From an uncultured bacterium (GTDB taxonomy: Bacteria > Acidobacteriota > Vicinamibacteria > Vicinamibacterales > UBA8438), in NCBI GenBank assembly GCA_963934795.1, contig CAWWAF010000001.1, positions 15,815-79,814 of the forward strand: a stretch of DNA of 64,000 bases, given 5' to 3'. Positions within the stretch are counted from its first letter, which is position 1. Each line of letters starts with the position of its first letter. Below, one piece after another: positions 6,563 to 62,171 of this stretch. Both the position numbers and the translations under genes were made by a program. Under the pieces are notes generated by a model. The model was given only the letters and a program-made list of their open reading frames with translations, ran no database searches and was not told where the DNA came from.

Positions 6563-6614
6563 ACGACGCTACGGTCTGTTCCAAAGCCCTGACGGGTCCT
6601 CGGCGCTGGCGGGA

Positions 6615-7223
6615 CTAGCCTGCGGCGGCGACGGGCCCGCGGCGACGCGAGAACCATCGCCATGCGGTGCGTGAAATCACACCCAGGAAGCACAGGATCA
6701 GCAGAATCAGCACGCTGGCGACCGCGAACGCGGCGACCGGATAGTTGATGGCCAGCGTACCAAGCCCGACGACGAACAGATCCTCCGAGATACTGAGCAC
6801 CCAGTTCGACACCGGCTCCGGGCTGGTATTGACCGCGGCCCGCGTGCTGGCCTTGGTCAGGTGGGCGCCGGCCGCGACCGACCCGCCCAGCACGGCCATC
6901 AAGACGTCGGCCATCGGCACCCCGTCGCCCATCTCACCCAATGACGCGACGGCTACGAGCGCGCCGCCCACGGGACGAATGGCGGTGTGCACGGCGTCCC
7001 ACGCGGAGTCGACCCACGGAATCTTGTCGGCGAAGAACTCCACCACGTAGAGTGCCGACGCCACGGCAATGACGATGTTGCTGTCGAACATGGCGAACCG
7101 TTCCGGCAGGTCCACCCAGCCGAACCGGGACGCCAGCCCGAGGATCGCCACCGTGGCATAGAGGTTCACACCGGCCGCCAGCGAAAATCCGAGCGCGTGA
7201 CCGAGGGTGGCGATGAGTGTCAT
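6615..7223 (-). CDS. DUF4126-like integral membrane protein.
   Basis: 202 aa and multi-TM. Contains GVNLYATVAILGLASRFGWVDLP...FFADKIPWVDSAWDAVHTAIRPVGGA. Confidence 0.75.
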   Translation of the reverse strand: MTLIATLGHALGFSLAAGVNLYATVAILGLASRFGWVDLPERFAMFDSNIVIAVASALYVVEFFADKIPWVDSAWDAVHTAIRPVGGALVAVASLGEMGDGVPMADVLMAVLGGSVAAGAHLTKASTRAAVNTSPEPVSNWVLSISEDLFVVGLGTLAINYPVAAFAVASVLILLILCFLGVISRTAWRWFSRRRGPVAAAG

Positions 7224-8724: not shown

Positions 8725-8743
8725 GGCGGAAGCTGGCCTGTGT

Positions 8744-10084
8744 CTACAGGAGCCCGGGCAAGGTATCGATCGGCAGCGCCCCAGAACTGCCGCCGAGCTT
8801 CTCGACCGGCACACCCATCTTGTCCATGAGCGTCACCAGCAGGTTCGCCATCGACGGCTCGTCCGTGAACCTCAGATGCCGCCCGCTGGGCAGGCGGCCG
8901 GCGCCACCGCCGACCAGCATCAGGGGCAGATCGACGCCTGAGTGGCGTGTGCTGTTCGAAATGCCGGAGCCGTACAGGATCGTCATGTGATCGAGCAGCG
9001 ACCCGTCCCCGTCCGGTGTGGCGCGTAGCTTCGTCAGATACCGCGAGAACAGATCCGTGTGGTACGTGTTGATCTTGGACATGTGCAGGATCAACTCCGG
9101 CACGTCGTTGTGGTGCGACAGCGGGTGATGCGCCTCCGGCACCCCGATCTGCGGATACGGCCGGGCGCTCTGTTCCTTGCCGATCATGAAGGAAATGACG
9201 CGAGTCAGATCCGACTGCATGGCCAGCAGTTGCAGGTCGAGCATCAGCTCAAGGTGGTCCTCGAACACCGACGGAGCCCCCTGCGGCTGGCCAATGGTCG
9301 GCAGCTCGAGATCGCTCTGCTCCTCCGCCCGTTGGATACGTCGCTCGACGTCGCGAATCGCCTCGGTGTATTCCTCCACCTTGGTCTGGTCGCCGGGTCC
9401 GAGTTCCCGCCGCAACGCCGCCAGCTTGTCGCCGACGGAGTCGAGCAAACTCTTGTGCTGCCGCAACCGGCTCTCACGAGCGGCACGATCCGTGGTGCCG
9501 CTGTCACCGAACAGTGTTTCGAACACCGCGCGCGGATTCCACTCGGTTGGCAGCGGCTGCGTGGCGCTGCGCCACGAGAGGGTGTGGGTATAGACGCAGC
9601 TCAGGTTGCCGGTGCACGCCCCCGCGTTGTTCGGCGGATCGAGTGACAGCTCCAGCGACGGCACCTGTGTCTCCTCCGCGAAGTGCCGGGCCAGCAGCTG
9701 ATCCATCGAGACATCGGCCACGATCTCGATCTCGTTGCGGCCCCCGCGTGTGGTGCCGGTCAAGAACGACCCGGACGCCCCCGCATGGATGTAATTCCAG
9801 CTCGAGTTCAGACCGGACAGCACGATCATCTGGTCTTTGAATGCCGCAAGCGGCGCCAGAATCGGCGACAGCTCGAAGCTCGTTCCCTCCCCCTTGGGCG
9901 TCCAGTGCTCCATGGCCATGCCGTTGGGCACGTAGAAGGCCTGAAACCGGTGCGGGGCGGTGGTCGCGGCACGCGCGCGAGCCGTGAACACCGGATGCAT
10001 CGCATCGAGGAACGGCAGCGCGACGGTTGCGCCCAAGCCTCGAAGCACCGTTCGACGCGGCAACGTCTTGGTCAGGAAGGTCAT
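8744..10084 (-). CDS. DUF1552 domain protein with a Tat-like signal; module copy 1.
   Basis: Contains MTFLTKTLPRRTVLRGLGATVALPFLDAM and ...HHPLSHH... Highly similar to 52756..54099. Start trimmed to ATG 10084, 11 nt after the upstream stop. Confidence 0.9.
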   Translation of the reverse strand: MTFLTKTLPRRTVLRGLGATVALPFLDAMHPVFTARARAATTAPHRFQAFYVPNGMAMEHWTPKGEGTSFELSPILAPLAAFKDQMIVLSGLNSSWNYIHAGASGSFLTGTTRGGRNEIEIVADVSMDQLLARHFAEETQVPSLELSLDPPNNAGACTGNLSCVYTHTLSWRSATQPLPTEWNPRAVFETLFGDSGTTDRAARESRLRQHKSLLDSVGDKLAALRRELGPGDQTKVEEYTEAIRDVERRIQRAEEQSDLELPTIGQPQGAPSVFEDHLELMLDLQLLAMQSDLTRVISFMIGKEQSARPYPQIGVPEAHHPLSHHNDVPELILHMSKINTYHTDLFSRYLTKLRATPDGDGSLLDHMTILYGSGISNSTRHSGVDLPLMLVGGGAGRLPSGRHLRFTDEPSMANLLVTLMDKMGVPVEKLGGSSGALPIDTLPGLL

Positions 10085-23797: not shown

Positions 23798-23812
23798 TGA
23801 GACTGAGTCTCA
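23798..23812. promoter_or_regulatory. Palindromic operator TGAGACTGAGTCTCA just downstream of the predicted feoAB -10 element.
   Basis: Perfect inverted repeat TGAGAC/GTCTCA, 14 nt after the -10 and 22 to 37 nt before the feoAB start. Related sites lie at 23640, 60428 and 60492. Confidence 0.55.
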
Positions 23813-23848
23813 CTTCTTGGATCCGCACGGTGGGTGGCCTCGCCACCG

Positions 23849-26383
23849 ATGCGAGGAGCATTTCGCCCCGTGCATCAGGGTCTCCGCACGCTCGACCAGC
23901 TTCCGATTGGCACCCACGCGGTGGTCCACCACGTGGGGTGCGACCGCCCCGTCGCGCGCCGCCTCATGGAAATGGGGCTGCTGCCAGGCACCGCCATCGA
24001 AACGGTCCGCCGCGCGCCACTTGGCGATCCGCTTGAGATTCGTCTCCGCGGCTATCTGCTCTCACTGCGACTCGCCGACGCCGCACTGATCCAGCTGATT
24101 CCTGAGGGCCGAGCGGATCTCGTTGATGAGGTCGATGCAACCGATCGCGACCAGCTCTTGCAGTTTGGCGCCTACCCAAGCAAACCCAGGGCCGCGACCG
24201 ACCGGGTCCAGACGGTGCTCCTGGCGGGGAATGCCAACTCCGGCAAGACCACAATCTTCAATGCGCTGACCGGCGCCCGGGCCCAGGTCAGCAACTATCC
24301 AGGGGTCACCGTGACCCGCTCATCCCGACGCATCACCCTGCCAGAAGGCTCGCCGGTCGAAGTGGTGGACCTGCCCGGCACCTACAGTTTGAGCGCGAAT
24401 TCACCCGACGAGCAGGTGGCGGCCGACGAGGTGCTCGGGCGTCGAGGCGACCCGCCTGACGCCGTCGTGGTGGTGGTTGACGCCGGCGCGGTCGAACGCG
24501 GCCTCTACCTGGTGCTCCAAATCGTCGAAACGGGGGTACCCGTCGTCGTCGCCCTCAATATGATCGACGAGGCGAGCGCCGGGGGTACCGACTTCGACAC
24601 GAAGCGACTGGGCCAGTGGCTCGGGGCCACTGTTGTCCCGACCGTCGCCTCGCGAGGCCGCGGCCTGGAGGAGTTGCGCGAGGCCATCGACGCCACTCTC
24701 ACGCGCGGCCCAAGGACCGACTCGTCCAGGCCGGGATTGCCTGCCGACGCGGAACAGGACGTAGCCGCGGTGACCAAGGCGCTGGCCGACGCCAACTTTG
24801 GCCAGACCCCGGCGGTGCAACGCGCGTGGGCGGTGTGGTCGCTGTTGTCGTTGGAGCACGACGACGACGCCTCGGGGCTTCCCGAGCCGGTTCGCCGCCA
24901 GGTGCAGGCGATCCAAGACCGTGCGACACAGACACAGCGCAATCTCCACCAGGAACTCATTACCGCCCGTTACCGGTGGATTGAGACGGTGGCGGCCGAC
25001 GTTCGCACACAAGCGCGCGAAGATACGCGACAGTGGACCGAACGACTCGATGGGATCCTCATCCACCGTTTCTACGGCGTGGCGGCCTTCGCTGTGGTCA
25101 TGGCGGTACTGTTCGAAGCCTTGTTCAGCTGGTCTGAGCCTTTCATCGGCGCCATCGAGGGCGCGACCGGCTGGCTGCAAACCATGGTGGCCACAAGCCT
25201 TCCGCCGGGGGTATTGAACGACCTCTTGATTGACGGCGTCATCGCGGGTGTCGGCAATGTGGTGGTGTTCGTGCCGCAGATCGCGATGCTGTTTTTCTTC
25301 ATCGCGCTGCTCGAAGATCTGGGCTATCTGGCCCGCGTCGCTTTCGTCATCGATCGGCTGATGGGACGGGTCGGTCTGCATGGCAAGGCGTTCGTGCCGA
25401 TGTTGTCCGGGTTCGCATGCGCGATCCCTGCGGTCATGGCGACACGCACGATCGAGAGCCGGCGAGACCGATTGATCACGATGCTGACGCTGCCGATGGT
25501 CTCCTGCAGCGCGCGACTCCCGGTCTACGCCCTGGTGACCGCCGTCGTGTTCGCGGGTGAGCCCCGCGTCTTTGGCTTGCTCAGCGTCGGGGCGCTCGTC
25601 CTATTTTCCATGTACACGCTCTCGGTCGTCGCCACCTTGGGCGCGGCGGCCGTCCTCCGGCGCACCGTGCTCACGGGCCCGCGGCTGCCGTTGGTGCTCG
25701 AACTCCCCCCCTATCGGGTACCGGTGTGGCGGAACGTCGCGCTGGTCACGTGGCGACGCGTGCGCAAGTTCCTCGAAGACGCCGGCACGATCATCCTCAC
25801 GATGACGATAATTCTGTGGGCGCTTCTCTCATTCCCGCACAGCGCGGAGATCGATACCCTGCATGACGCGTCGCGCGCGCAGGTGCTGGCGACGACGCCT
25901 GCGGCCGACCAGGAGGCCGCGCTGGCCGAGCTCGATGGCCGCCTCGCCAGCGACCAGCTACGCTACAGCGTGGGGGGCCGAATGGGCCGCCTTATCGAAC
26001 CGGTGCTCGAGCCACTGGGCTTCGACTGGCGAATCGGCGTGGGCATTCTCGGCGCATTCGCGGCCCGAGAGGTGTTTGTCTCGACCCTCGGCATCGTCTT
26101 CGGCATCGAAGCGGCGGACGAAGAAAGCGTCAGCCTGCGATCATCGCTACAAAACGCGACCCGTGTCGACGGATCCCCCTTGATGACCCCGCTGGCCGGT
26201 GTGTCTCTGATGGTGTTCTTTGTCCTCGCTTGCCAGTGCATGAGCACCATCGTAGTTGTGCGCAAGGAGGCGGGGGGCTGGGGCTGGCCTGTCTTCATGT
26301 TTAGCTATATGTCGGTGCTCGCCTACGTCGCCTCACTCGCGGTGTATCAAATTGGCTCCCTCATGGGATGGGGGACCGCATGA
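23849..26383 (+). CDS. feoB: Ferrous iron transporter: FeoA domain fused to FeoB.
   Basis: The N-terminal 80 to 90 aa match FeoA (LDQLPIGTHAVVHHVG...ARRLMEMGLLPGTAIETVRRAPLGDPLEIRLRGYLLSLR). Next comes the FeoB G-domain (VLLAGNANSGKTTIFNALTG...NYPGVTV...VVDLPGTYSL) and then a polytopic membrane domain. The ORF opens at 23834; ATG 23849 is preferred. Confidence 0.9.
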   Translation: MRGAFRPVHQGLRTLDQLPIGTHAVVHHVGCDRPVARRLMEMGLLPGTAIETVRRAPLGDPLEIRLRGYLLSLRLADAALIQLIPEGRADLVDEVDATDRDQLLQFGAYPSKPRAATDRVQTVLLAGNANSGKTTIFNALTGARAQVSNYPGVTVTRSSRRITLPEGSPVEVVDLPGTYSLSANSPDEQVAADEVLGRRGDPPDAVVVVVDAGAVERGLYLVLQIVETGVPVVVALNMIDEASAGGTDFDTKRLGQWLGATVVPTVASRGRGLEELREAIDATLTRGPRTDSSRPGLPADAEQDVAAVTKALADANFGQTPAVQRAWAVWSLLSLEHDDDASGLPEPVRRQVQAIQDRATQTQRNLHQELITARYRWIETVAADVRTQAREDTRQWTERLDGILIHRFYGVAAFAVVMAVLFEALFSWSEPFIGAIEGATGWLQTMVATSLPPGVLNDLLIDGVIAGVGNVVVFVPQIAMLFFFIALLEDLGYLARVAFVIDRLMGRVGLHGKAFVPMLSGFACAIPAVMATRTIESRRDRLITMLTLPMVSCSARLPVYALVTAVVFAGEPRVFGLLSVGALVLFSMYTLSVVATLGAAAVLRRTVLTGPRLPLVLELPPYRVPVWRNVALVTWRRVRKFLEDAGTIILTMTIILWALLSFPHSAEIDTLHDASRAQVLATTPAADQEAALAELDGRLASDQLRYSVGGRMGRLIEPVLEPLGFDWRIGVGILGAFAAREVFVSTLGIVFGIEAADEESVSLRSSLQNATRVDGSPLMTPLAGVSLMVFFVLACQCMSTIVVVRKEAGGWGWPVFMFSYMSVLAYVASLAVYQIGSLMGWGTA

Positions 26384-51039: not shown

Positions 51040-52677
51040 CTACGGCCCAACCGTTGGCATCTGGATGCCACGGTCCGTCGGGTCAAACACCGCTTCCATC
51101 TTGGCGTCGCGATCGGCCACGAACTGAATCTGGTCTCGCCGCGTTTGCAGACAGTCGTGGCAGACCGATCCGGGCACCGTGTGCCCATCGCCCTCGGCAC
51201 TGATACCCCGCTCAGCCATGAGCGCCTCCAGGTGGGCTGCCGTGAGCACCTGCGCCTTGTAGAAATCGGAATAGCTCAGGCCGCGGGCAATGGCCAGTGG
51301 CGACCACCCATCCACGGTGCGCGCGTCGAGATCGGCGCCCTGAGCGACCAGGTAGTCAACCACTTCGTTGGCTCCCCGGAAGGCAACCCCATGAAGCGCG
51401 GTCTCGCCACGATAGTTCGCGGCGTTCACGTCGTTCCCGACCTCGACGAGCATGCTAACGGCTTCGAGCACCTCATCCTCCTGACCCGGAAGAGACCCCC
51501 CGTCCTCGCCAGGATTCCAGAGAGCCAGGCCGGCCGCCACCATCAACGGCGTCGTGCCGTCGGCGCTGGGCATCAGCGGATCAGCACCAGCGTCAAGCAG
51601 GACCCGCATCGCCTCGACATCGGTCACCTTCGACGCCAGCATGAACGGGGTGGCGCCGAGCCGATTGAATCGGTTCCGCTGACCGTCCCGCATCCCATTG
51701 CGGGTCATTCGTGTATTGACCTCGACCCCGTCCGCCAACAGCCTTCGGATGAAATCGATGCTATCGAGGGTGCCCGAGGCAAACGGCCCAGGGGTGCCAA
51801 ATCCGACATTCATGCGGCGGGTGCGCACCGCTTGATGCAACGCGTTCCAGCCCGCCCCGGCATGGTTCGGGTCGGCGCCACGGTCGAGCAAGTAGGCGGC
51901 CAGCTCCCAATTGGCGTTGGCGGCCGCAATCACTAGCGCGCTCTGGCCGTCCGATACGGCGTCGTTGATATCGGCCCCGGCGTCCAACAGCACCGTGGTC
52001 GTCTCGAAATGCCCACTCCGCACGGCGAAGAGTAGCGGCGTGAAACCGGTGGCTGGCAGGCTCGCGAAGGTCCGGCCGCGCCCTGGCGGAGGATTGTCGG
52101 TCCGGGCATTGATGTCAGCCCCCAGCTCGGCCAGCGCGTGAACCACGGCCGCGTTGTTCTTCGCGGCCGCCCACATCAGTGCCGTCTGGCCGCGCAGCGC
52201 CTCGCGCGCGTTCGGGTCCGCACCACGCAGGAGCAGCACGCGGACCGCATCCGGGTCTCCAGTACGCGCGGCGGTCATCAGTACCGTCTCGCCTCCCGGC
52301 ATCGTGCGGTTCGCGTCCGCACCCGCATCGAGGAGCCGTTGCAACATCGGCGCGTCGCCATTTTCAGCCGCCAACCACACCGGGCTGACACCGTGTCTGT
52401 TCGCGGAGGTGACGTCGGCACCGGCCTCCAGCAGCAGATCGACCATCTCGGGTCGCTGCTCGTGCACCGCCCACTGCAACGCCGTCGACCCGTCGCCCAT
52501 GCGAACGTCGACGTTATCCGTCTCGTCGAGGATGCCACGCACGGCGTCGAGAGCACCACGACGCACCGCATCGATGAGCGGCGAATCAGCTGGGGCCAGG
52601 GCCACCAGTGAGGTCGACCCTGCCAGCCCCACGGCGACAACCAACAGCCCGACCGGCGCGATTCGCAGTAGTCTCAT
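51040..52677 (-). CDS. Exported ankyrin-repeat protein; third gene of module copy 2.
   Basis: Signal peptide MRLLRIAPVGLLVVAVGLAGS. Many ANK repeats. Long collinear similarity to 7351..8724 (for example RGQTALMWAAA in both). Confidence 0.85.
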   Translation of the reverse strand: MRLLRIAPVGLLVVAVGLAGSTSLVALAPADSPLIDAVRRGALDAVRGILDETDNVDVRMGDGSTALQWAVHEQRPEMVDLLLEAGADVTSANRHGVSPVWLAAENGDAPMLQRLLDAGADANRTMPGGETVLMTAARTGDPDAVRVLLLRGADPNAREALRGQTALMWAAAKNNAAVVHALAELGADINARTDNPPPGRGRTFASLPATGFTPLLFAVRSGHFETTTVLLDAGADINDAVSDGQSALVIAAANANWELAAYLLDRGADPNHAGAGWNALHQAVRTRRMNVGFGTPGPFASGTLDSIDFIRRLLADGVEVNTRMTRNGMRDGQRNRFNRLGATPFMLASKVTDVEAMRVLLDAGADPLMPSADGTTPLMVAAGLALWNPGEDGGSLPGQEDEVLEAVSMLVEVGNDVNAANYRGETALHGVAFRGANEVVDYLVAQGADLDARTVDGWSPLAIARGLSYSDFYKAQVLTAAHLEALMAERGISAEGDGHTVPGSVCHDCLQTRRDQIQFVADRDAKMEAVFDPTDRGIQMPTVGP

Positions 52678-52755
52678 CTCGATCTCCCAGTGCCCGCAGA
52701 TGCGGGTGCGACGAACCAGCACAGCCGCTCCCCATGTCTGGCGGCCGCCACTGTC

Positions 52756-54099
52756 CTACAGATCCGCTAGTCGCCCCGTACTGTCCGACACACGGTCGAC
52801 ACGTGCGCCCACCTTGTCGAGCAGGCTCACCCCCAAGTTCATGAACGGGGTGTCGAGCTCGTATTGCAGATGGCGTCCGCCGACGAGCTGTCCGTTGCCA
52901 CCACCAACCAGCGTGACGGGCAGGTTGTAGGGCGTGTGATGATCGCCATCCCCCATGCCCGTGCCATACAGCAGAATCGTGTGGTCGAGCAGCGTGCCGT
53001 CGCCGTCCGGCGTGTTGTGCATTTTCTCGACCATCTGTGCGAAGAGCGACATCTGGTGCGTGTTGATCTTCGTGTACTGCTCGATATTGTGCGGATCGAG
53101 TTGATGGTGCGACACGCTGTGGTGTGCCTCGGGCACGCCAATCTTCGGGTAGGTGCGCCCGCTCAGCTCGCGAGCCATCTGGGTGCAACTCACCCGGGTG
53201 ACGTCTGCCTGGTAGGCCAGCACCAGCATGTCGAACAGCAACAACACATGTTCGTCGTACTCTTCGGGCACGCCGCCTGGCTGCTCGACCGCGGGCAAAG
53301 GTGTCGCCGCATTGCCCTGCTCGGCCCGCTGAATCCGCCGTTCGATCTCCCGCACGGCGTCGAGATATTCCTCGACCGACGATCGGTCCCGCAGACCCAA
53401 GCGACGCTCGAGACGGGCAATACTCTCGGTCACGGAGTCGAGAATGCTGCGGTCGGTCTGCATCTGCGCCAGACGCGCTTCCATGCTGCCGCCATCGCCG
53501 AACAGACGCTGAAACACCACGCGCGGATCACGCTCGTGCGGTAGTGGCGTGGTCGCGGTGCGCCAGGACGTCGAATTCTGATAGGTGCAGCTGTAGCCGT
53601 TCTCGCAGTTCCCTACCGTGAAGTTCGATTCAGTCGTCAGCTCAAGCGACCGCAGCGAGGTGTCGGCACCCAGCGTGTCGGCGGCGTACTGGTCAATGGT
53701 CTTGCCGGCCTCGATATCCGCGCCTTCCGTCCGTTTGGGAAGCACACCGCTCAGCCAACCCCCGTGGGCGCGGGTGTGTACCCCGCCGCCTTCATTCGTG
53801 CTCACGAGACCACGGTTGCTCAGACCGCTCACCACCACCAACTGATCACGGTAGGGCTCGAGCGGCTTGAGAATCGGAGACATCTCGAAATCCCGCCCTC
53901 CGCCGCCGGCCGGGTGGAAGTTCGGCAGGAACATGCCGTTGGGCGCATACACGAACCCGAGCCGTGGAATGGGGTTCGCCGCGGTGCGCGCCGTGGCCGT
54001 CAGTGCGGGCGCCATGGCGTCGAGGAACGGCAGGGCGACGGTGGCACCGATGCCTCTGAGCACGGTCCGGCGCGGCAGCGCCTTCTTGGTGACAATCAT
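52756..54099 (-). CDS. DUF1552 domain protein with a Tat-like signal; module copy 2.
   Basis: Contains MIVTKKALPRRTVLRGIGATVALPFLDAM and HHSVSHH. The start overlaps the upstream stop by 4 nt. Confidence 0.9.
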   Translation of the reverse strand: MIVTKKALPRRTVLRGIGATVALPFLDAMAPALTATARTAANPIPRLGFVYAPNGMFLPNFHPAGGGGRDFEMSPILKPLEPYRDQLVVVSGLSNRGLVSTNEGGGVHTRAHGGWLSGVLPKRTEGADIEAGKTIDQYAADTLGADTSLRSLELTTESNFTVGNCENGYSCTYQNSTSWRTATTPLPHERDPRVVFQRLFGDGGSMEARLAQMQTDRSILDSVTESIARLERRLGLRDRSSVEEYLDAVREIERRIQRAEQGNAATPLPAVEQPGGVPEEYDEHVLLLFDMLVLAYQADVTRVSCTQMARELSGRTYPKIGVPEAHHSVSHHQLDPHNIEQYTKINTHQMSLFAQMVEKMHNTPDGDGTLLDHTILLYGTGMGDGDHHTPYNLPVTLVGGGNGQLVGGRHLQYELDTPFMNLGVSLLDKVGARVDRVSDSTGRLADL

Positions 54100-56555
54100 G
54101 ACTCGCTTCTCCTGTGCAAGAACGGATAGCTGTTCACGATGCCGATCACGATGGCATGCATCCCGTGGTCGTCCTCCGACGCCTCACGCACGATGCGCCG
54201 CACCGCCGGCATGTCGTAGTAGTCCAGGCCGCGGCCCAACGCATAGGTCAGCAGCTTCTCGGTCACGGTCGTGGCGAAACGATCGGGGCGCTCAACGAGC
54301 GCCGCCCGCAGTTCGGCCACGCCATCGAACGCCGTCCCATCCGGCAACACTCCGGATGTGTCCAGCACGTTGAACGACTCGTCCACCACGCGCGAGCGAC
54401 CGATGGCGTCGAACCGCTCCAGCGCGAATCCGGCCGGATCGATCATCGAATGACAGGCGGCGCAGGCGGGATTCGCCCTATGCGCCGACATCCGCTCGCG
54501 CATCGTCGCCACTTTGGCCTGGGTCTTCTTGTCGTTCAGCGCAGGAATCCCTGGCGGCGGATCGGGAGGTGGGGTGCCCAGAATGTTGTTGAGAATCCAC
54601 TTCCCACGGAGCACCGGCGAGGTTCGGATGGCGTGCGACGTCAGGGTCAGGATGCTGCCGTGACCCAGCAAACCACCACGAGCGCTGTCGGCCGGCAGGG
54701 CAACCCGGCGAAAGTGGCTGCCCTGCACGTTGGGAATGTCGTAGTGGTCGGCGAGGCGCTCGTTGAGGAACGTGTAGTCGGCCGTCAACAGATCGAATAC
54801 CCCACGATCCTCACGGACGACACTGTCGAAGAACAACTCGGTTTCGCGCAGCATGGCCTGGCGCAGGGTCTCGTCGAACGCCAGCGCATACGGGTCACCC
54901 GGCCGAACCACCTGCTCGAGGTTGCGAAGCTGCAACCACTGTCCGGCAAAGTTACGCGTGACAGACTCCGACCGAGCATCCGCAATCATCCGACGTGTCT
55001 GTTGCTCAAGAACCGCCGGGTCGCTCAGTGCGCCGCGCTCGGCCAACGAGAGCAGCTCGTCGTCAGGGATGCTGCTCCAGAGGAAGAAGGAAAGCCGGGA
55101 GGCCAGCTCGAGGTCGGTCACTTGATAGGACGCGCCCGGGGGCGAGTCTGCCGGGTCTCCTTCGATGCGCAGGAGGAATTCGGGGCTCACCAGCAGGCGC
55201 CGTAGCCCCATTTCGATACCCGCTTCGAAAGTGGCCCCGTCGCCACGACCCATCTCGTAGAAGCGGAGCAGTACATCGAGATCGGTACCGGACACCGGCG
55301 CCCGATAGGCGCGTCGCGCCAGCGTCGACAAGATGGTTCGCGCGCAGGCTAGCTCGTCAGCCGGAGTGGCCGGACGGCAGGAAAAAATGCGGTCACGGCT
55401 CGGCGTCTGCCCCGGCCCTCTGGCGTCGTGCGGCCCGGAGATACTCACGGTGCTGACGAATGGCAGGCTCCCACCCGGACCACCAGCGTTCCCGGACGTG
55501 CGGGGATTCTGGAAACGCTCTCGAACCTGTTCGACCAGCACCGGAGGATTCCGCGAAAAGGCCAGGGCCAGCTCGTGCCGCCCGGCACCGACGGGCACGC
55601 GCAAGTCGAGCCTGCCACCGGTGAGATACGGATTCGGCTCGCCCTCGCTGGGCGCGGGCCCCAACGTGTAGTGTTCGACCGGCTCCCCATCCAGGGTCAC
55701 CTCCAGCCGATGTTCTTCGCGCAGTCCTCGGTTGCCGTTCAATTGAACATGAACGTCATAGGCGGCATCGAGCGGAAAGAGATAGTCAACCAGCATTCCA
55801 CCCCGGGTGCCGAACGGCAGGCCTTGTGCGCGTTGATGCTGCTGCTCGTCCTGCGCCGCACGAAACGTCTCGGATACCACCCCCGGCGGTGGACTACCGA
55901 CGGCCAGCCGGCTAATCGATCGACTTGCGGCCAGATACCGCTCCAGCAGCGACTGCGACATCCGCAGCACGCCGCCGATGTTGTCGAAACCGAAACTCGC
56001 GTCGTCGGCCGGCAGCAGGTCGTCAACATCAACCTCAAGCGCCAGCAGATCCCGAACGGCATTGCGGTACTCGGTGCGGTTCAACCGGTGTAGAGCCACG
56101 GTTCGGCCGGGGTCCGGTGCCGCCATCCAGTTGCTGTCCAGTTGCGCTTCCAGCCACGACCGGAACCCGTCCAGCGTGGCCTCATCCGGCCGTGGGCGCC
56201 CGGCGGGCGGCATCAGCCCCGCGCGGAGCTTGCGTACCACCTGTTCCCAATGCTGTGCCGCATCGCCAACGCGGGACAGGTCGAGCGTATCGAGGCTCAG
56301 CCCGACCGCGCGCAGCTGAGACACCATGGGCGTGCGAGGAGCGTCGGTGCCGTCCACCACCGCCTCGCTGTGGCAGGTGACGCAGTACTGATCCAGCATC
56401 GCGGCGTAGGCGTTCACAGGCTCGTCGGCGGCCGTCGGCTGGGCTGCCGCCGCGCCGCCATACAGCAAGGCGGCAGTCAGCAAAGCCGCCGCGACCGCCC
56501 GGGCGCCGTGGATGCTTGTCAATTGCACTCCAGAAACGTCAACAGTGCTTTCCAT
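54096..56555 (-). CDS. DUF1592/DUF1595/DUF1587/DUF1588/DUF1585-family protein with two CxxCH motifs; module copy 2.
   Basis: 819 aa. Contains YCVTCHS near the N-terminus and CAACHSMIDPAGFALERFD near the C-terminus. Collinear with 10096..12660. Confidence 0.9.
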   Translation of the reverse strand: MESTVDVSGVQLTSIHGARAVAAALLTAALLYGGAAAAQPTAADEPVNAYAAMLDQYCVTCHSEAVVDGTDAPRTPMVSQLRAVGLSLDTLDLSRVGDAAQHWEQVVRKLRAGLMPPAGRPRPDEATLDGFRSWLEAQLDSNWMAAPDPGRTVALHRLNRTEYRNAVRDLLALEVDVDDLLPADDASFGFDNIGGVLRMSQSLLERYLAASRSISRLAVGSPPPGVVSETFRAAQDEQQHQRAQGLPFGTRGGMLVDYLFPLDAAYDVHVQLNGNRGLREEHRLEVTLDGEPVEHYTLGPAPSEGEPNPYLTGGRLDLRVPVGAGRHELALAFSRNPPVLVEQVRERFQNPRTSGNAGGPGGSLPFVSTVSISGPHDARGPGQTPSRDRIFSCRPATPADELACARTILSTLARRAYRAPVSGTDLDVLLRFYEMGRGDGATFEAGIEMGLRRLLVSPEFLLRIEGDPADSPPGASYQVTDLELASRLSFFLWSSIPDDELLSLAERGALSDPAVLEQQTRRMIADARSESVTRNFAGQWLQLRNLEQVVRPGDPYALAFDETLRQAMLRETELFFDSVVREDRGVFDLLTADYTFLNERLADHYDIPNVQGSHFRRVALPADSARGGLLGHGSILTLTSHAIRTSPVLRGKWILNNILGTPPPDPPPGIPALNDKKTQAKVATMRERMSAHRANPACAACHSMIDPAGFALERFDAIGRSRVVDESFNVLDTSGVLPDGTAFDGVAELRAALVERPDRFATTVTEKLLTYALGRGLDYYDMPAVRRIVREASEDDHGMHAIVIGIVNSYPFLHRRSES

Positions 56556-56640: not shown

Positions 56641-57711
56641 CTAGTTAGGGCCGCGTTGGACGGGCATCCCGAGCCGGTCGTTGACCTGTTCGGTGGCCCG
56701 TGGAAACCGACGCTCAAACGCCACGGTGGCGCGGGCCGTCAGACCATTGCCGGTGGCCTCGGTGGACGGCGCCAGAAAGAGCGCGGCCAAATCGCGGGCC
56801 TCGGCGAAGTGCACCCCGTCTTCGGGCCCCAGAACATACAGCGCCGTCGACAGCAGGTCCGCGACGAGGGGGTCCTGGTGCCAGACTGTCACTGATTCCG
56901 GGCGGTAGAGCGCGTCGCCCGATCGCGGATCCAGGATATGGGCGATTCGTTCACCGTCCACGCTGAAAGAGCGTTCCGATGCTCCGCTGGTAGCGAGCGA
57001 CCCCTCGATCAGCACAATGTCCATGGCAGGCTGGCTCCTGCGGGCCGGATCGGCAATGGCAAACGGCCAGCCCTCGGAATGTCTCGTGGCCGCCGACACA
57101 GCGACCTGACCGCCGAGATCTACCCACCACGGGAAATTGCTCTCGCCGTCGGCTTGCAAACGGCGCAAAGCCTCGCCCTTCCCGAAAGCCCCGGCATCGA
57201 GCGTGACGTCTGCCAGCCGCGTCACCCGGCACGCTCCTGTTTCGGAGTTAAACGCGAAGTGGTGAAATCCAGACACCGCGCGCGCTGTTAGAAGTTCGGC
57301 CTCGGATGGGCGTCGCCCCCCGTCCCGTAGCCCCCAGGCCTCGATCAGGGCACCCACGGCTGGGTCGAAAGCGCCGTCTGTTTCCACATGCCACCGGGTC
57401 AATATTGCCCAGAGCGCGCAGACGTCCTGCCCGACCTCAAACGGGTCGCCCACGGGTTGACGATTGAGGCGGCCGAGCTCGGTGTTCTCACGCCACGTGC
57501 TGAGCGTGGCCTCGCTCTGCTCCAGGCGCCGAACCATGCGGTCTAGCTGATTCAGCGCGGCGACCCGGTCCGGCGCGTGGACCGCGAGCGTCGCGCGCGT
57601 CCCCATCAGGTAAAGCGTGCGCTCGACTTCAACCGGACCGGCAGCCAGGAGCGAATACAGGAGCAATGGAGAGAGCGTGCCGAGCGCGACGAGGCTCGGC
57701 ACGCGGCTCAC
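56641..57711 (-). CDS. apbE: FAD:protein FMN transferase (ApbE family).
   Basis: 356 aa. Contains LMGTRATL, DGAFDPAVG, LDAGAFGKGEA, VDLGGQV and LATSGASERSF. Confidence 0.9.
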   Translation of the reverse strand: MSRVPSLVALGTLSPLLLYSLLAAGPVEVERTLYLMGTRATLAVHAPDRVAALNQLDRMVRRLEQSEATLSTWRENTELGRLNRQPVGDPFEVGQDVCALWAILTRWHVETDGAFDPAVGALIEAWGLRDGGRRPSEAELLTARAVSGFHHFAFNSETGACRVTRLADVTLDAGAFGKGEALRRLQADGESNFPWWVDLGGQVAVSAATRHSEGWPFAIADPARRSQPAMDIVLIEGSLATSGASERSFSVDGERIAHILDPRSGDALYRPESVTVWHQDPLVADLLSTALYVLGPEDGVHFAEARDLAALFLAPSTEATGNGLTARATVAFERRFPRATEQVNDRLGMPVQRGPN

Positions 57712-58184
57712 GCCGAGATGCCGACCTTGCTGGGAAACATGCTGGTGGAGTCTGACGACGCTCGACCAAGACGCCAGCTGATGAAGAGGTGCGCGCTGTA
57801 GCCGACGACGAACATGACACTGGTCGACACATGGGCCCAGACCATGGCCGTCACGAATTCAGGTGTCGATGCCACCTGCAGCAAGTAGCCGGACAGGGCC
57901 ATTGCCGAAAAACTAAGCAGTGACATCCAACCGGACCGCCGGTTCCTTGCACTCGGCGAGATGAGCTTCTTCAATGTGTGCGAACGAAACACCATGCCGA
58001 AAAAGGCAATGAAGACCGGCGCGGCAAGCAGATGCAGGGAGAGCATGGCCGGCTGCCACGGATGATTGATGACCGCGAACGGGTCAACCGCGGTCACGGC
58101 GTACTTCATGTAGAAATACGCGAGGCCGGTCACGGTCACGACGCCGTGCAAACCATTGAACGCCCACTGTTCCCACCACTTCAT
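57708..58184 (-). CDS. Small 4-TM membrane protein with intramembrane histidines (possible b-type heme carrier).
   Basis: 158 aa. His residues sit in predicted TM1 (NGLHGV), TM2 (LSLHLL) and TM4 (WAHVS, YSAHLF). It has 4-nt overlaps with both neighbouring genes. Confidence 0.7.
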   Translation of the reverse strand: MKWWEQWAFNGLHGVVTVTGLAYFYMKYAVTAVDPFAVINHPWQPAMLSLHLLAAPVFIAFFGMVFRSHTLKKLISPSARNRRSGWMSLLSFSAMALSGYLLQVASTPEFVTAMVWAHVSTSVMFVVGYSAHLFISWRLGRASSDSTSMFPSKVGISA

Positions 58185-58744
58185 CGGGCTACCGCTCCAC
58201 CTTCTTCTCGGCCGCGTTCCAACACCTGGTCCATCGCCAACACCCGTCGCACAGCGGCGTTTGCCGCACCCGTCGTCAGCGTGCCGCCGAGAATGGGCTG
58301 TATCGCCCGCTGCACGGCCAGATCGTCGGTCAGAAGCTGTTTGTAGTACTGCTGCAACCAGTTCTGCGCCGGTTGATACTCGGGCGGCTCCTGAAAGGCC
58401 GTCACTTCGATCCGCTTCACGCTACCGTCAGGCTCGAGTGAAATCAGCAAGCTCTCCATTTTGGTTCGGACGACGTGGGTGTCGATGTAGGCGCGTCCCA
58501 CGGTCCGTCCACCCTGCGTCGCGACGTAGCGAGCCACGAGCGCGCTTCTCACCTCGCCCCCCGCCAGCTCGCCGATCCGAACCATCTGCTGCTCGGTCAA
58601 GAACACGCGTTCCGCTTCAATCCCCGCGTGCGGAAACACGGCGGCCAGAGCCTCCTCCCGAGTCATCTGGCCGCCCTGGGCAACTACGACCACCGTGGTC
58701 GTCACAAGCATCAACGACGCGCACATTAAGGCCACTCGGATCAT
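58181..58744 (-). CDS. Exported FMN-binding domain protein, a likely ApbE flavinylation substrate.
   Basis: 187 aa with a signal/anchor (ALMCASLMLVTTTVVVVA). FMN_bind-like core. ILGGTLTTGAAN resembles the [S/T]GA[T/S] flavinylation motif. Confidence 0.75.
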   Translation of the reverse strand: MIRVALMCASLMLVTTTVVVVAQGGQMTREEALAAVFPHAGIEAERVFLTEQQMVRIGELAGGEVRSALVARYVATQGGRTVGRAYIDTHVVRTKMESLLISLEPDGSVKRIEVTAFQEPPEYQPAQNWLQQYYKQLLTDDLAVQRAIQPILGGTLTTGAANAAVRRVLAMDQVLERGREEGGAVAR

Positions 58745-58756
58745 GCCAACCTCGCC

Positions 58757-60235
58757 CTAGAAGGCGTACCCCATGCTCACGTTGAACTGGTTGACGCCGG
58801 TCTCTGCGTCGTTGCTGACCCAGGCGTGGTCCACCTTCACTACGATTTGGGAAATTGGCTTCAACTCAATACCCACCGTAAGAAACGTGTTATCTGTCGA
58901 GAGGCTGCGGGACAGGCCGTCCGGCACTCGGTCCTGAGTATCCACCTGCTCGTAGCGAACATACGGCGTCAGCGCGACTCCAGCGGAATCCGTCTGCGAG
59001 AGCACGTTGTAACCCACTTGAATGTAGGCCCCCTGCATCCGTTCACCAACACCGTTACCGAGCAGCTGATTAAGCTGAGCCGCGTCGTCGAGGTGGGCCC
59101 TGGCGAAAAGCCCCCGCACGTCCAGTCCGCGCACTTGCGCGGCACCATGCAGGTCGAAAATGGTCGTTCGAACGCCATACTCAGCGCCATCAACCACCAC
59201 CTGACCCTGTCCTGAATCACCGGTATACAAGCTAGCTCCCACAAACACTCCGGGGGTCGGCGTAACGTCGACGCGTCCGGTGAACGCCATACTCGTGGCC
59301 TTGGCCTTGTTGCCTTTCTGGCGGCCGCCGCGTACCCCCTTCGAGGAAAAGTCGAGACCGTCAAATCCGTTCATGACATAGGCCCGGAACGACACGCGGT
59401 CGAACGCTCCGTATATGCCGGCTCCATTTTCTCGCCACGTCGACGGGATAATCCGTTGTTCGGTCACCGGACGCTCGGCACCGAGGAAGACGGTCGGCTC
59501 ATGGAACTCGTTGACCAGTCCCATGGGCGCCAGCAACATACCGCCGCGCACCCCCATGTTGTCAGTCGCCTGGTAGTCCAGGTATGCGAACTCCACGTAA
59601 ATCTCATCGGCGTGCTCAATCTCGATTTCCGAGTTGAACAGAAACTTGTCGTTGAAGCGGTACCCCGCGTAGATGATGGCGCGAAGAAAATCGGCCTTGG
59701 TCGTTTGCCCTGTTGCGGCCCCGCCTTCGTTCTCGTCTGCGTAATTTTCGAAGAGCATCTCACCATACCCGGCAATGGAGACCCCTTGACCTCGGCTGTA
59801 GGTGGACGCCGCCGACGGAGCGAGTCCCAACCGGCGGGCATCGTCCACACTGACCGGCTGTACCCCTTCTCCTTCTCCACTACGGAGGCGCTCGACCTCA
59901 TCGGCCAACAGGTCAACACGGCGCTGTAACTCCTCAACATCCGATGGTTGCTGCTCCGTTTCGGCAGCGCCGCACGCAGCGGGTGCAATATCCACCTCAA
60001 CCTCGGCCGATGTGCGCTCGGTGACCTCTTCGGAAGCGCCGACTGGAGCTCCGTCCGTGTTGCCGACAATGCCGCACGTAGCGGGTGCGATATCCGCCTC
60101 AGTCTCGGCCGATGTGGGCTCGGTGACCTCTCTAATCTGCGTTTGCGCGGTCGCGCTCGTGGCGAGGGCGCACAGCGCCAACGCCGGAATCATCTGATTG
60201 CGCCAGAAATAGCCCTGGTGTGTCTTTGTCGTCAA
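58757..60235 (-). CDS. Outer-membrane beta-barrel porin (porin O/P-like) with an N-terminal repeat and a coiled-coil segment.
   Basis: Signal peptide MIPALALCALATSATAQ. Coiled-coil ELQRRVDLLADEVERLR. Alternating beta-strand pattern ending in ..NVSMGYAF. Start is either TTG 60235 or ATG 60193. Confidence 0.8.
   Translation of the reverse strand: MTTKTHQGYFWRNQMIPALALCALATSATAQTQIREVTEPTSAETEADIAPATCGIVGNTDGAPVGASEEVTERTSAEVEVDIAPAACGAAETEQQPSDVEELQRRVDLLADEVERLRSGEGEGVQPVSVDDARRLGLAPSAASTYSRGQGVSIAGYGEMLFENYADENEGGAATGQTTKADFLRAIIYAGYRFNDKFLFNSEIEIEHADEIYVEFAYLDYQATDNMGVRGGMLLAPMGLVNEFHEPTVFLGAERPVTEQRIIPSTWRENGAGIYGAFDRVSFRAYVMNGFDGLDFSSKGVRGGRQKGNKAKATSMAFTGRVDVTPTPGVFVGASLYTGDSGQGQVVVDGAEYGVRTTIFDLHGAAQVRGLDVRGLFARAHLDDAAQLNQLLGNGVGERMQGAYIQVGYNVLSQTDSAGVALTPYVRYEQVDTQDRVPDGLSRSLSTDNTFLTVGIELKPISQIVVKVDHAWVSNDAETGVNQFNVSMGYAF
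59969..60131. repeat. Two copies of a 61-nt direct repeat (period 102 nt) inside the porin gene.
   Basis: 59969..60029 and 60071..60131 align with few mismatches (gccgcacg[c/t]agcgggtgc[a/g]atatcc[a/g]cctca..ctcggccgatgtg.gctcggtgacctct). They encode VTE[P/R]TSAE[T/V]E[A/V]DIAPA[T/A]CG twice. Confidence 0.75.
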
Positions 60236-60427
60236 GGGTTTGTCTCTCGGTTGCGGTTGCGCGCCCTGACGATCATCTCTACAATAAGCACCACTGATGT
60301 CATCAGCTCACGCGACCTGGTTCCAAACTGCGTCTTAAGGGAAGCGGCGAGTGACCGCTCAGTTGGCCCGCCGGGTGTGACAGCACCCGCGGGCCATTTT
60401 TGCTACACACTCAAACTGAATCAATAA

Positions 60428-60442
60428 TGAGACTCGATCTCA
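60428..60442. promoter_or_regulatory. Operator site TGAGACTCGATCTCA, just downstream of the predicted -10 of the porin operon.
   Basis: Inverted repeat TGAGA-N5-TCTCA. Read on the minus strand, it starts 13 nt after the TATAGT -10. This is the same relative position as the feoAB site. Confidence 0.55.
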
Positions 60443-60455
60443 ATTTGATATCGCA

Positions 60456-60484
60456 ACTATATATCCGACCACTTTGGTCGTCAA
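60456..60484 (-). promoter_or_regulatory. Predicted sigma70-type promoter of the porin/FMN/4-TM/apbE operon (TTGACG-N17-TATAGT on the minus strand).
   Basis: On the forward strand, cgtcaa lies at 60479..60484 and actata at 60456..60461. This is the most AT-rich stretch in the window. The -35 context matches the feoAB promoter. Confidence 0.45.
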
Positions 60485-60491: not shown

Positions 60492-60506
60492 TGAGACTGG
60501 ATCTCA
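60492..60506. promoter_or_regulatory. Operator site TGAGACTGGATCTCA, immediately upstream of the predicted -35.
   Basis: Second copy, 64 nt from the first. Both copies are preceded by tcaata..aatgagact. Confidence 0.5.
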
Positions 60507-60586: not shown

Positions 60587-60616
60587 GAAGCGCCGGCGCG
60601 GGTGCGCCGGCGCTTC
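60587..60616 (-). terminator. Perfect 13-bp GC-rich stem-loop downstream of the 60664..61737 gene; candidate terminator.
   Basis: gaagcgccggcgc-gggt-gcgccggcgcttc, 48 nt after the stop. No clear U-tract on the minus strand, so the intrinsic-terminator call is tentative. Confidence 0.45.
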
Positions 60617-60663: not shown

Positions 60664-61737
60664 CTACTGCTCGTTTGATGTCTGTGCGGTCTGGTTCAGC
60701 AGCAGTTTCTGCACGCGCCAGTTGTTCATGTCGGCCACGAACAAGGTGTTCTCATCGCGGCACGACAGACCGTGAATCCAGTTGAACTGTCCCGGGCCCC
60801 GGCCAGACTCACCCAGGTAGCCCAACATCTCGCCCTCCAGCGTCATCTTGTAGATGCGGCCGGGATCTTCGTCGGACGCGAACAGGTACTGTGTGTCACC
60901 ACCGGAAATACACAGGGTCCACGGCGCGTGCGCGTCCGGTCGACCCGGGTTCCGGTTGCCAAGCACCGGCTGATAGTTCTTGTCGAAGGGGACGGCCATG
61001 ACGATCGACTTCAGGAGATTGCCATCACTGTCGAACTTCTGAATCCGCCGGTTGGAGCGGTCGGCTACATAGACGTTGCCGGCTCGATCCACCTGCAGGC
61101 TGTGCGGCAGACGGAACTGACCGGGTTCGTTGCCGTACCCCCCCCAGGACTTGAGCCAGTTGCCCCACTTGTCCATCTTGCCCACGCGTGAGTTGATGTA
61201 CCCGTCGCTGACGTAGATGTTGCCTTCCGCGTCCCACCCGACATCTGTCGGTCCACCAAAGTACCCGTCGACAGCCCGCGCTTCGCTAGCTGGCGGATGG
61301 TGGTATTCGTCGAACCCTTCGGGCCGACGCCCCAGATTCAGGGTGACGTAGCCGTCGGGGTTGATCTTGGTCACCGCGTTGGTCCCCTTGTCGACAATCC
61401 AGAGGTTGTCCTCGTTATCGAAACGGACCGAGTGGCCGTAGCCGAAGCCGTAGACGTTCTGACCAATCTCGCGGACGAAGTTACCGCGATCGTCGAACTC
61501 GAGCAGGTTGGTCGTGGCATTGCCGAACAACGGACCGCTGGTCGACGAGCCCGGATGGTTCAGCACAATCAGGTGGCCCTTGGAGTTCTCCGCCACCCCC
61601 AGCGTCTCGCCCAGATTCATCGTGGGCGGGTATTTCAGGTAGTCCGGCACAGATACGTACGGGATTTCTGGCACAGTCTGCGCGAACGCGGGCGCGGCAA
61701 ACGCTATAAGCGCCACGGCGGCAATGAGACGTTTCAC
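60664..61737 (-). CDS. Exported NHL-repeat beta-propeller resembling peptidyl-alpha-hydroxyglycine alpha-amidating lyase (PAL).
   Basis: AGGAGG lies 6 nt before GTG 61737. Signal peptide VKRLIAAVALIAFAAPAFAQ. Contains GHSVRFD, SDGYINSRVGKMD, PGQFRLPHSLQVD and VADRSNRRIQKFD, which parallel, from memory, the PAL blocks SDGYCNSRIVQF, PGQFSVPHSLAL and VADRENGRIQCF. Confidence 0.85.
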   Translation of the reverse strand: MKRLIAAVALIAFAAPAFAQTVPEIPYVSVPDYLKYPPTMNLGETLGVAENSKGHLIVLNHPGSSTSGPLFGNATTNLLEFDDRGNFVREIGQNVYGFGYGHSVRFDNEDNLWIVDKGTNAVTKINPDGYVTLNLGRRPEGFDEYHHPPASEARAVDGYFGGPTDVGWDAEGNIYVSDGYINSRVGKMDKWGNWLKSWGGYGNEPGQFRLPHSLQVDRAGNVYVADRSNRRIQKFDSDGNLLKSIVMAVPFDKNYQPVLGNRNPGRPDAHAPWTLCISGGDTQYLFASDEDPGRIYKMTLEGEMLGYLGESGRGPGQFNWIHGLSCRDENTLFVADMNNWRVQKLLLNQTAQTSNEQ

Positions 61738-62171
61738 GGGAACCTCCTTGAGACCGGTCGGAGACCGGGAGCGGATCACGAACAGATAGTGCCCAATCAT
61801 AGCGCAGACAACGCCCACTGGCGTTGTCTGGTTGTTCGGGCACACCACTATGATAAGGTGAGGAATTGACCATCTCCCGTCTCTGGTGGGTGTTGCCACG
61901 CTCACATGTGGCCGTCAGTAGATGGAAGGACCCAAGCCGATGCGCTTTCAGATTATCGTCCGTCACTCGTAAGCGCTCCGACCTCCGGTTAGGTCTGCCA
62001 GATCCGCACCCGGGACCGCAAGTCCCTCACTACAAACGCTGATTTGTCGCTGTCCCCGCCCCGGGCGGTCGAGCGACCCGTGTTCTTGCTCGTGCTGTGG
62101 GACTCCCCATAGACGAGGCTTTGCCATCGTGTCTTACAGACGGGCTGGGTAGCCCGTCCCGAGGGTGTGCC

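Follow-up and report, generated by a model that had tools for sequence, protein, structure and literature searches.

The stretch of DNA analysed here, hereafter the window, comprises 64,000 nucleotides (nt) of contig CAWWAF010000001.1 from an uncultured bacterium of the Vicinamibacterales (Acidobacteriota). Between positions 56641 and 60235 of its minus strand lies an operon that encodes a porin-like protein, an exported flavoprotein, a small membrane protein with four transmembrane (TM) helices, hereafter the 4-TM protein, and the flavin transferase ApbE. This operon probably specifies an envelope-spanning periplasmic ferric reductase module, induced by iron starvation and feeding the ferrous iron transporter FeoAB or the iron permease FTR1. 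The proposal is based on the composition of the gene cluster, on its conservation and gene fusions, and on an operator palindrome that this cluster has in common with iron transporter genes.

The four genes and their conservation

The four open reading frames (ORFs) are arranged head to tail on the minus strand. The first (58757-60235) encodes a porin-like outer-membrane beta-barrel protein of 492 residues, identified by its signal peptide, its coiled coil, its fold matches and its C-terminal GYAF. It is followed by an exported, RnfG/NqrC-like protein of 187 residues (58181-58744), assigned to the FMN_bind (flavin mononucleotide) domain by family-level matches and by a profile match to RnfG. 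The third product is the 158-residue 4-TM protein (57708-58184), an inner-membrane protein and predicted dihaem cytochrome b in view of its invariant histidines and predicted helices. The last gene (56641-57711) encodes ApbE, a flavin adenine dinucleotide:protein FMN transferase of 356 residues recognized by PF02424. The preliminary description of this region had reported four same-strand genes, three of them joined by 4-nt overlaps, and the coordinates and junctions were confirmed: ATGA between the flavoprotein and 4-TM genes, GTGA between the 4-TM gene and apbE. These overlaps are taken as translational coupling, and a 12-nt spacer containing GAGG separates the porin gene from the flavoprotein gene. 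The operon is limited to exactly these four genes because a perfect 13-bp hairpin (60587-60616) stands between it and the upstream NHL-repeat gene, and because the DUF1592 gene downstream of apbE has its own promoter-like site (56624->56595).

The conservation of this gene set was examined in 80 genome loci located through the 4-TM family, nearly all of them labelled Vicinamibacterales, Vicinamibacteria or unclassified Acidobacteria, with a few metagenome-assembled genomes labelled Latescibacterota or Gemmatimonadota. The set proposed at the outset proved to be conserved: the order porin-FMN-4TM-ApbE is found in 73 of the 80 loci, and six others end at contig edges. A metagenome scan, which reached distant 4-TM members (~40-45% identity) via a narrower alignment, disclosed a second order, apbE-porin-FMN-4TM, in 25 loci, together with 12 loci in the order of the window. 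In addition, gene fusions are observed, in which ApbE is placed either after the 4-TM domain or before the porin coiled coil. Fusions of the first type occur in seven representatives less than 50% identical to one another (P0362, P0375, P0377, P0378, P0399, P0431 and P0390; L088 2590-4080), one of them in a porin-FMN-fusion locus. The second type is a 736-residue ApbE-porin protein found in L091 (2416-4626) and L092 (2397-4607), from the assemblies GCA_015657895.1 / GCA_015657855.1, upstream of the FMN_bind and 4-TM genes. It comprises ApbE (residues 41-290), then the coiled coil and the porin barrel, with Porin_O_P at 411-483, and would therefore place the N-terminal coiled coil of the porin in the periplasm. 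No such fusion was present among the metagenome loci and, as it is seen in only two related assemblies, it may be a frameshift artefact. Since the gene set is kept in two orders and its members are found fused, comparison of the sequences indicates that the four genes, porin included, constitute one conserved functional module.

The 4-TM protein belongs to no Pfam or NCBIfam family. Its own family amounts to 236 proteins in a word-indexed search and to 664 clusters at 50% identity (E<=1e-3). Four long helices are predicted by AlphaFold2, with a predicted local distance difference test score (pLDDT) of 70.6. Across 149 representatives, mutually less than 50% identical, two histidines of TM2 (H51 and H69) and two of TM4 (H118 and H132, spaced by 14 residues) are invariant, each over 136-147 of these sequences. 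A loop residue, H41, is shared by 140 of 144; it belongs to the acidic loop DPFxVxNHPxQP on the periplasmic side, written DPFxVxNH41PWQP for the window protein. The preliminary description had placed histidines in TM1, in TM2 and twice in TM4. The window protein does carry all four (His13, His51, His118 and His132), but the TM1 residue does not extend beyond the order to which the window belongs, TM1 being free of histidine in 56 of 111 family members, and the invariant layout consists of two residues in TM2 and two in TM4. Loop 2 contains 5.1 Lys+Arg per sequence and loop 1 only 0.23; following the positive-inside rule, an N-in/C-in topology is therefore predicted, which would orient H51 and H118 toward the periplasm and H69 and H132 toward the cytoplasm. 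Two histidine pairs so disposed at opposite membrane faces are the layout expected for two stacked b haems, as predicted here. Of all Pfam families, Ni_hydr_CYTB (PF01292) and DUF4405 (PF14358) are matched most often by members of the 4-TM family. The former is weakly matched by 8 of 34 close and 14 of 57 distant relatives (best 1e-7), the latter below threshold by 6 of 34 and 8 of 57 respectively (best 2e-5), the window protein itself having no DUF4405 match. Compatibility with a dihaem cytochrome b, as suggested initially, thus draws on the four invariant TM histidines and on this weak affinity; the structural comparisons, discussed below with the other objections, are less favorable. No PepSY match was obtained with Pfam in the four window proteins or their relatives. 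GlpG and LHC, matched by narrow and broad 4-TM profiles in PDB sequence searches, were discarded as chance hits.

The identity of ApbE, announced in the preliminary description, is firmly established by PF02424 (E=1.5e-50; 172.6 bits for a cut-off of 25.6; profile positions 1-266 of 266). With 98 bits for a cut-off of 498, the protein is a member of the family, not the E. coli-type equivalog PRK10461. Its N-terminus contains a hydrophobic segment, either signal or anchor, without a lipobox cysteine. As a side observation, the 4TM-ApbE fusions fit an N-in/C-in 4-TM domain with the ApbE signal anchor as fifth helix.

The flavoprotein scores 14.2 bits against FMN_bind (PF04205), under the cut-off of 22, and FMN_bind is matched weakly by 28 of its 28 aligned relatives (best 8.3e-6). 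The family profile matches RnfG of the solved Rnf complex (9eri_G, E=3.8e-4, residues 20-169), the alignment setting the family sequence IAGATLT on ITGSTIT of RnfG. Because the family motif aligns in this way with the RnfG flavinylation site, Thr155, in the window motif L-G-G-T-L-T, is the predicted target of ApbE. The exported FMN_bind protein initially described is therefore retained, whereas its TTGA flavinylation motif is not: these letters are literally present (T157-A160), but the site homologous to that of RnfG/NqrC is L-G-G-T155. The canonical ApbE motif is [S/T]GA[S/T] (PMC8238504). Among 66 distant relatives it reads [T/S/A]-G-A-[T/S], the last three positions (G, A and T/S) being invariant, and the 120 nearest homologues carry AGAT (105), AGGT (7), AGAS (6) or LGGT (1). 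P0121 has LGGT like the window protein, and AGGT is found in seven other clusters; the motif of the window lineage is read as a degenerate version. A second, divergent FMN_bind-like paralogue of 185 residues (FMN_bind E=0.033) lies just downstream of apbE, in convergent orientation, at L004 9507-10064 (minus strand) and L071 2923-3396.

Behind its signal peptide, the porin has an acidic region of variable sequence and then a conserved coiled coil; the ~350 residues that lead up to the terminal GYAF are very conserved. Its barrel region contains 42 acidic and 28 basic residues, 26 of the acidic ones being invariant in the alignment, and its identity across the genome loci (60-87%) exceeds that of ApbE at the same loci. 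The window protein has no Pfam match, Porin_O_P (PF07396) included; this family is matched by one of 30 relatives (0.003) and by the fused relative L091 (23.1 bits, cut-off 20.9) over 73 residues only. The best PDB fold matches of its AlphaFold2 model are the 16-strand porins OmpC, OmpF, OmpU and OprO (E ~1e-5 to 1e-4, with low TM-scores), and a PDB profile search matched the coiled coil only. The 492-residue protein is likely an OprO/P-like porin, as far as this model indicates; the outer-membrane porin of the preliminary description is thus partly borne out, by the fold matches and the fused relative, and weakened by the missing Pfam match and the poor model. Two other assignments were considered and set aside. 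DUF3570, a flavinylated barrel-sized domain, has no Pfam match in 30 relatives, and there is no [S/T]GA[S/T] motif in the porin; a Cyc2-like cytochrome-porin fusion was ruled out, the porin being devoid of CXXCH. The porin gene also contains a 68-nt direct repeat (59962-60029 and 60064-60131, 87% identical, spaced by 102 nt; residues ~38-55 and 72-89), which encodes in the N-terminal region two acidic units spaced by 34 residues, each ending in IAPA(T/A)CG with one cysteine. These cysteine repeats are missing from the aligned homologues, the N-terminal regions of which are variable and acidic.

Promoter, operator palindrome and leader

The porin operon is preceded by a sigma-70-type promoter, TTGACG-17-TATAGT (60456-60484, minus strand), graded strong with 10 of 12 hexamer matches. 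One copy of a palindrome is present on each side of it on the same strand, both conforming to TGAGATC(C/G)AGTCTCA and 64 nt apart. Copy 1, TGAGATCCAGTCTCA (60492-60506), stands immediately upstream of the -35 hexamer within a 25-nt direct repeat, and copy 2, TGAGATCGAGTCTCA (60428-60442), begins 14 nt downstream of the -10 hexamer. The exact pattern TGAGA-N5-TCTCA occurs four times in the 64 kb: twice at the porin promoter, once before feoAB and once at 23640. The feoAB gene encodes a FeoA-FeoB fusion ferrous iron transporter (23834-26383, plus strand; FeoA 8.7e-19, FeoB_N 1.5e-52, Gate and FeoB_C). Its palindrome, TGAGACTGAGTCTCA (23798-23812, plus strand), is located 22 nt upstream of the listed start and downstream of promoter-like hexamers, TTGACC...TATAAA, which resemble the porin promoter when read by eye. 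The operator common to the module and feoAB, as claimed initially, was therefore found again. The fourth copy, TGAGACGGCGTCTCA (23640-23654), is GC-rich, lies inside the 3' end of a TonB-dependent receptor ORF (21253-23700), ~160 nt upstream of the feoAB operator, and may represent an additional operator, the stem of a terminator or a chance occurrence.

At related loci, where one mismatch or less to TGAGA-N5-TCTCA was allowed, 68 of 78 loci have the palindrome in the 500 nt that precede the porin gene, with 49 other sites in the remaining 1.41 Mb, an enrichment far beyond chance. Two copies ~64 nt apart are a common arrangement. In the distant loci the palindrome is usually the sole site in ~16 kb, 60-100 nt ahead of the operon's first gene. 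In 15 of these loci, a Fur-family regulator gene (PF01475, 4e-33) is found upstream of the module, usually as first gene, and in 11 it is followed by an FTR1 iron permease gene (PF03239, 3.6e-33), which gives the order fur-ftr1-apbE-porin-fmn-cytb. Examples of this six-gene operon, headed by one TGAGAC-N3-GTCTCA palindrome, are L155 3977-8429 and the loci L110, L116, L130, L135, L149, L150, L154 and L166. No P19/EfeO-type partner was noticed between the module genes of the 11 loci. In L114, a short ORF between fur and apbE (255-1073) matches only two short stretches of the FeoB N-terminal G-domain region (E=2e-10) and may be a FeoB remnant or a small FeoB relative.

Several of the 49 other sites precede genes encoding P19-like iron transport proteins (PF10634), as in L024, L027 and L043. 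In these Vicinamibacterales they are near the module and display the same promoter-operator-hairpin layout; in L024 the gene is at 6066-6701 (minus strand), with operator sites at 5702, 6858 and 7003. The other genes found behind the palindrome are thus iron transporters in every case (FeoAB, P19-like and FTR1). The palindrome has a 7-1-7-like layout, TGAGAYN-N-NRTCTCA, and is read here as the putative box of an iron sensor of the Fur family, because it heads autoregulated fur operons and because all these other genes are iron transporters. The TGAGACNNNGTCTCA palindrome is proposed as putative target of the operon-encoded Fur homologue, for example that of L155 (3977-4486). In the window itself, homologues of Fur, FTR1 and P19 were not found with phmmer (1e-5).

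The 5' leader of the porin operon (~200 nt, 60236-60450) contains a GC-rich hairpin, GCCCGCGGGUG-CUGUCA-CACCCGGCGGGC (60366-60394, minus strand), surrounded by an A-rich 5' flank and a 3' GCUGAACG motif, with a GCGGCAAC/GCUGUCAC-like loop. The whole leader has a folding z of -3.3. A relaxed pattern search gave 57 distinct sequences, upstream of the porin in most related loci, of which 41 clean ones were kept; these 41 distinct orthologous leaders all fold into a stem of 11-14 bp, with compensatory changes in mid-stem. RNAalifold on a MAFFT alignment recovered only the inner five pairs, because stem bulges shift the register, and the stem lengths were taken from single-sequence folds in place of this consensus. 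An Rfam search matched no family. The hairpin may be an extra, post-transcriptional control element of the regulon. A near-perfect palindromic version of it is observed beside P19-like genes, 0.7-1.1 kb upstream of the porin, in ~9 loci.

Proposed mechanism and competing readings

When iron is plentiful, a Fur-family repressor would be bound to the two TGAGA-N5-TCTCA palindromes flanking the promoter, and iron limitation would derepress the porin operon. The OprO/P-like porin would then let in small iron species for which no TonB-dependent receptor is required. In the inner membrane, the 4-TM cytochrome b would hold two b haems, at H51 and H118 near the periplasm and at H69 and H132 near the cytoplasm, and, judging from these invariant histidines and the predicted topology, would move electrons outward from quinol or a cytoplasmic donor. 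ApbE, by the role of its family, would attach FMN to Thr155 of the RnfG-like protein through a phosphoester bond. The reduced FMN, as suggested by flavin redox chemistry and by analogy, would reduce the periplasmic Fe(III) species that entered via the porin, and the resulting Fe(II) would be imported by FeoAB in the window genome and by the operon-encoded FTR1 in distant relatives. Comparable steps have been reported: VciB, FoxB and FsrB are periplasmic ferric reductases (PMC8238504, PMC10760861), FsrB feeds FeoAB in B. japonicum (PMC10760861), PepSY-like/ApbE systems are Fur-repressed (PMC8238504) and an apbE-linked DUF4405 protein binds haem b (PMC11334425). The preliminary description had already proposed an iron-regulated reductase handing Fe(II) to FeoAB. 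The iron-type regulon and the conserved module agree with it, but many relatives are linked to FTR1, not Feo.

Several points weigh against this mechanism. The sequences show the gene content, the conservation of the set, the fusions, and the operator with its links; the chemical steps are deduced from the protein families and from analogues. The feoAB gene is unlinked to the module, 30 kb away in the window, and at none of the 80 related genome loci is feoAB found within 10 kb of the module. The module is also not always complete, as the close lineage L018 = L001 (8474-8608) has porin-FMN-4TM without apbE at the locus, and L006, from a separate look-up (7876-9393), has porin-4TM only, without FMN_bind and apbE; in L006 these two genes are followed by that of a 274-residue OMP_b-brl-like protein. 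At the level of the proteins, the TM2 histidines are separated by 18 residues, the usual spacing being 13-14. The AlphaFold2 model of the 4-TM protein is only moderate, and no cytochrome b was retrieved for it by Foldseek against the PDB, which gave non-significant matches, or by PDB sequence search. The porin model is poor (pLDDT 49) and its Pfam support sub-threshold or partial. The LGGT of the window departs from [S/T]GA[S/T] at positions 1 and 3, and from the family consensus AGAT, although the threonine and the first glycine are kept. The signal of the Fur-family regulator could be peroxide or a metal other than iron. Finally, the sequence leaves the direction of electron flow open.

This last point leaves room for a first alternative, in which the flavoprotein and cytochrome b act as oxidants of periplasmic Fe(II), with ferroxidation coupled to FTR1/P19 permeation as in Fet3-Ftr1 or FtrB/FtrD, and send the electrons into the cell, where the quinone pool or cytoplasmic Fe(III) receives them. 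Indeed, FTR1-family permeases are classically paired with an oxidising partner (Fet3/Ftr1, FtrABCD), and the FTR1 gene lies directly upstream of apbE in the 11 distant loci, in clusters where no P19/EfeO-type partner was noticed; the P19-like genes under the same operator in L024, L027 and L043 point in the same direction. Such a reverse flow is nevertheless unlikely. Because of its low midpoint potential, FMN reduces Fe(III) well but is poorly suited to oxidising Fe(II). FTR1 does not accompany the module in the window genome or at any of the 80 genome loci, and in the window this module shares its operator with an Fe(II) importer. Moreover, the characterised analogues VciB, FoxB and FsrB are all reductases (PMC8238504, PMC10760861).

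The periplasmic ferric reductase proposed above assigns to the porin the sole role of an entry route. A bolder version, a long shot on the present data, would make it an active part of a trans-envelope redox machine. Its coiled coil would recruit the flavoprotein and, in some lineages, ApbE; the reduction of iron would take place at or within a pore that is acidic and selective for metals, or else Fe(III) minerals outside the cell would receive electrons or reduced flavin. If true, this machine would be a haem-poor, flavin-based counterpart of porin-cytochrome conduits and would fill the place of the 'unknown reductase for inorganic ferric iron' by which FeoAB is fed in aerobic bacteria (PMC10760861). 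In a related alternative, electrons cross the outer membrane altogether: the porin docks the flavoprotein or releases reduced free flavin, and electrons reach insoluble Fe(III) outside the cell, in a flavin-based parallel to porin-cytochrome conduits or to the Listeria PplA system. The porin is indeed obligate and unusually conserved (60-87% identity, above ApbE), has a conserved periplasmic coiled coil and is fused to ApbE in one lineage, and FMN_bind lipoproteins do perform extracellular electron transfer in Gram-positives (PMC8238504). With ~350-390 residues and fold matches to 16-strand general porins, however, the barrel is too small to house a 17-kDa domain, the porin carries no flavinylation motif, and no flavin exporter or further redox protein is conserved in the cluster, all of which makes extracellular transfer quite improbable.

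A last alternative retains the reductase and changes its substrate: Cu(II), Mn oxides, or some periplasmic protein or metabolite in its oxidised form, for example, would be reduced in place of iron. Otherwise the module would serve as an alternative carrier of electrons that spares iron. In either case, the palindrome would belong to a paralogue of the Fur family with another signal (Zur, Mur or PerR-like). MsrQ-type cytochromes, for example, serve protein repair, and the signal of a Fur-family protein cannot be assigned from its sequence alone. A PepSY_TM protein has also recently been tied to copper supply for oxidases (PMC13038864). This reading is very improbable, as the other genes behind the palindrome are all iron transporters and the cluster has no conserved substrate enzyme of the MsrP kind.

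Known systems, significance and neighboring genes

The ferric reductase module proposed here is best compared with the PepSY-like systems, which associate PepSY_TM with DUF2271 or FMN_bind and ApbE and have VciB, FoxB and FsrB as relatives. Both comprise ApbE, an exported flavinylated protein (here predicted) and a small His-rich membrane conduit (PMC8238504, PMC10760861). PepSY-like systems are Fur-repressed in some species and have been proposed or shown to reduce periplasmic ferric iron for a ferrous importer, a function to which that of the module is likened by inference. They differ from it in several respects: the 4-TM protein has no PepSY or PepSY_TM match, a porin takes the place of the TonB-dependent receptor, the FMN_bind protein is RnfG-like instead of DUF2271, and the lineage is that of the Vicinamibacterales and their relatives. 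A second comparison concerns the DUF4405 cytochromes and the ferrosome protein FezC (PMC11334425), apbE-adjacent membrane proteins with four conserved TM histidines, as in the module. Those described, from Proteobacteria and Firmicutes, have six TM helices, and their links are with Flavodoxin_4 and a flavin transporter (PMC11334425). The module has the histidines but four helices instead of six, a window protein without PF14358 match, and FMN_bind and porin as partners. It would therefore work like the PepSY-like and DUF4405 systems without being, on present evidence, a member of either, because it lacks the features that define them (PepSY_TM for the former, six TM helices and PF14358 for the latter).

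The layout predicted for the 4-TM protein also resembles the four-helix dihaem b layout of FdnI and the prokaryotic cytochrome b561 family (PF01292), in which the TM4 histidines are likewise 14 residues apart. In that family, the other two haem ligands come from TM1 and TM2. In the module, by contrast, the TM1 histidine is not conserved and TM2 has two invariant histidines 18 residues apart. The P19-FTR1, FtrABCD and EfeUOB clusters, including the Gram-positive P19 clusters that contain FMN_bind (PMC8238504), have in common with the module an FMN_bind protein of undefined redox role; FTR1 in the same operon in 11 distant relatives and P19-like genes under the same operator are further points of likeness. 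The module is set apart from them by the adjacency of FTR1 and apbE and by a redox partner made of flavoprotein, cytochrome b and porin. With RnfG/NqrC, the FMN_bind fold and the flavinylation site align, but the flavoprotein of the module is exported and stands alone, no other Rnf or Nqr subunit being found in the cluster.

The principle at work is already known, since a role in assimilatory iron reduction has been proposed for sets made up of ApbE, an exported flavoprotein and a His-rich membrane cytochrome (PMC8238504, PMC11334425). The preliminary description did not recognize this combination as a described system. The papers retrieved contain no description of this combination, of the 4-TM family, of an obligate OprO/P-like porin partner, of the fur-ftr1-linked form or of a dominance in Vicinamibacterales, and to that extent the claim holds; the novelty is less than implied because the concept is established for PepSY-like, MsrQ-like and DUF4405 systems (PMC8238504, PMC11334425). 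To ApbE-dependent extracytosolic electron transfer, the module would add a minimal dihaem cytochrome b family, predicted here and invisible to Pfam, a highly conserved and uncharacterised porin family, and a likely Fur-family operator consensus for the phylum. The Vicinamibacteria and their relatives among the Acidobacteriota, abundant in soils and oceans, have hardly been cultured, and next to nothing has been published on how they acquire iron. The module is widespread (664 clusters at 50% identity for the cytochrome alone), compact and under an iron-type operator, and is a candidate for the reduction of non-siderophore ferric iron in aerobic bacteria before its import by Feo or FTR1. In Bradyrhizobium, the reduction of such iron has been ascribed to an 'unknown ferric reductase' (PMC10760861).

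The genes surrounding the operon were considered as well. The NHL-repeat gene (60664-61905) was rejected as a fifth member, since the hairpin at 60587-60616, the promoter and the operators intervene and since it adjoins the module in close relatives only. The flanking genes of the window, which recur on both sides in the close relative L001 and not at more distant loci, encode an NHL-repeat beta-propeller on this flank and, on the other (51040-56555), a DUF1592/DUF1588-type cytochrome-like protein, a DUF1552 protein and a large ankyrin-repeat protein.

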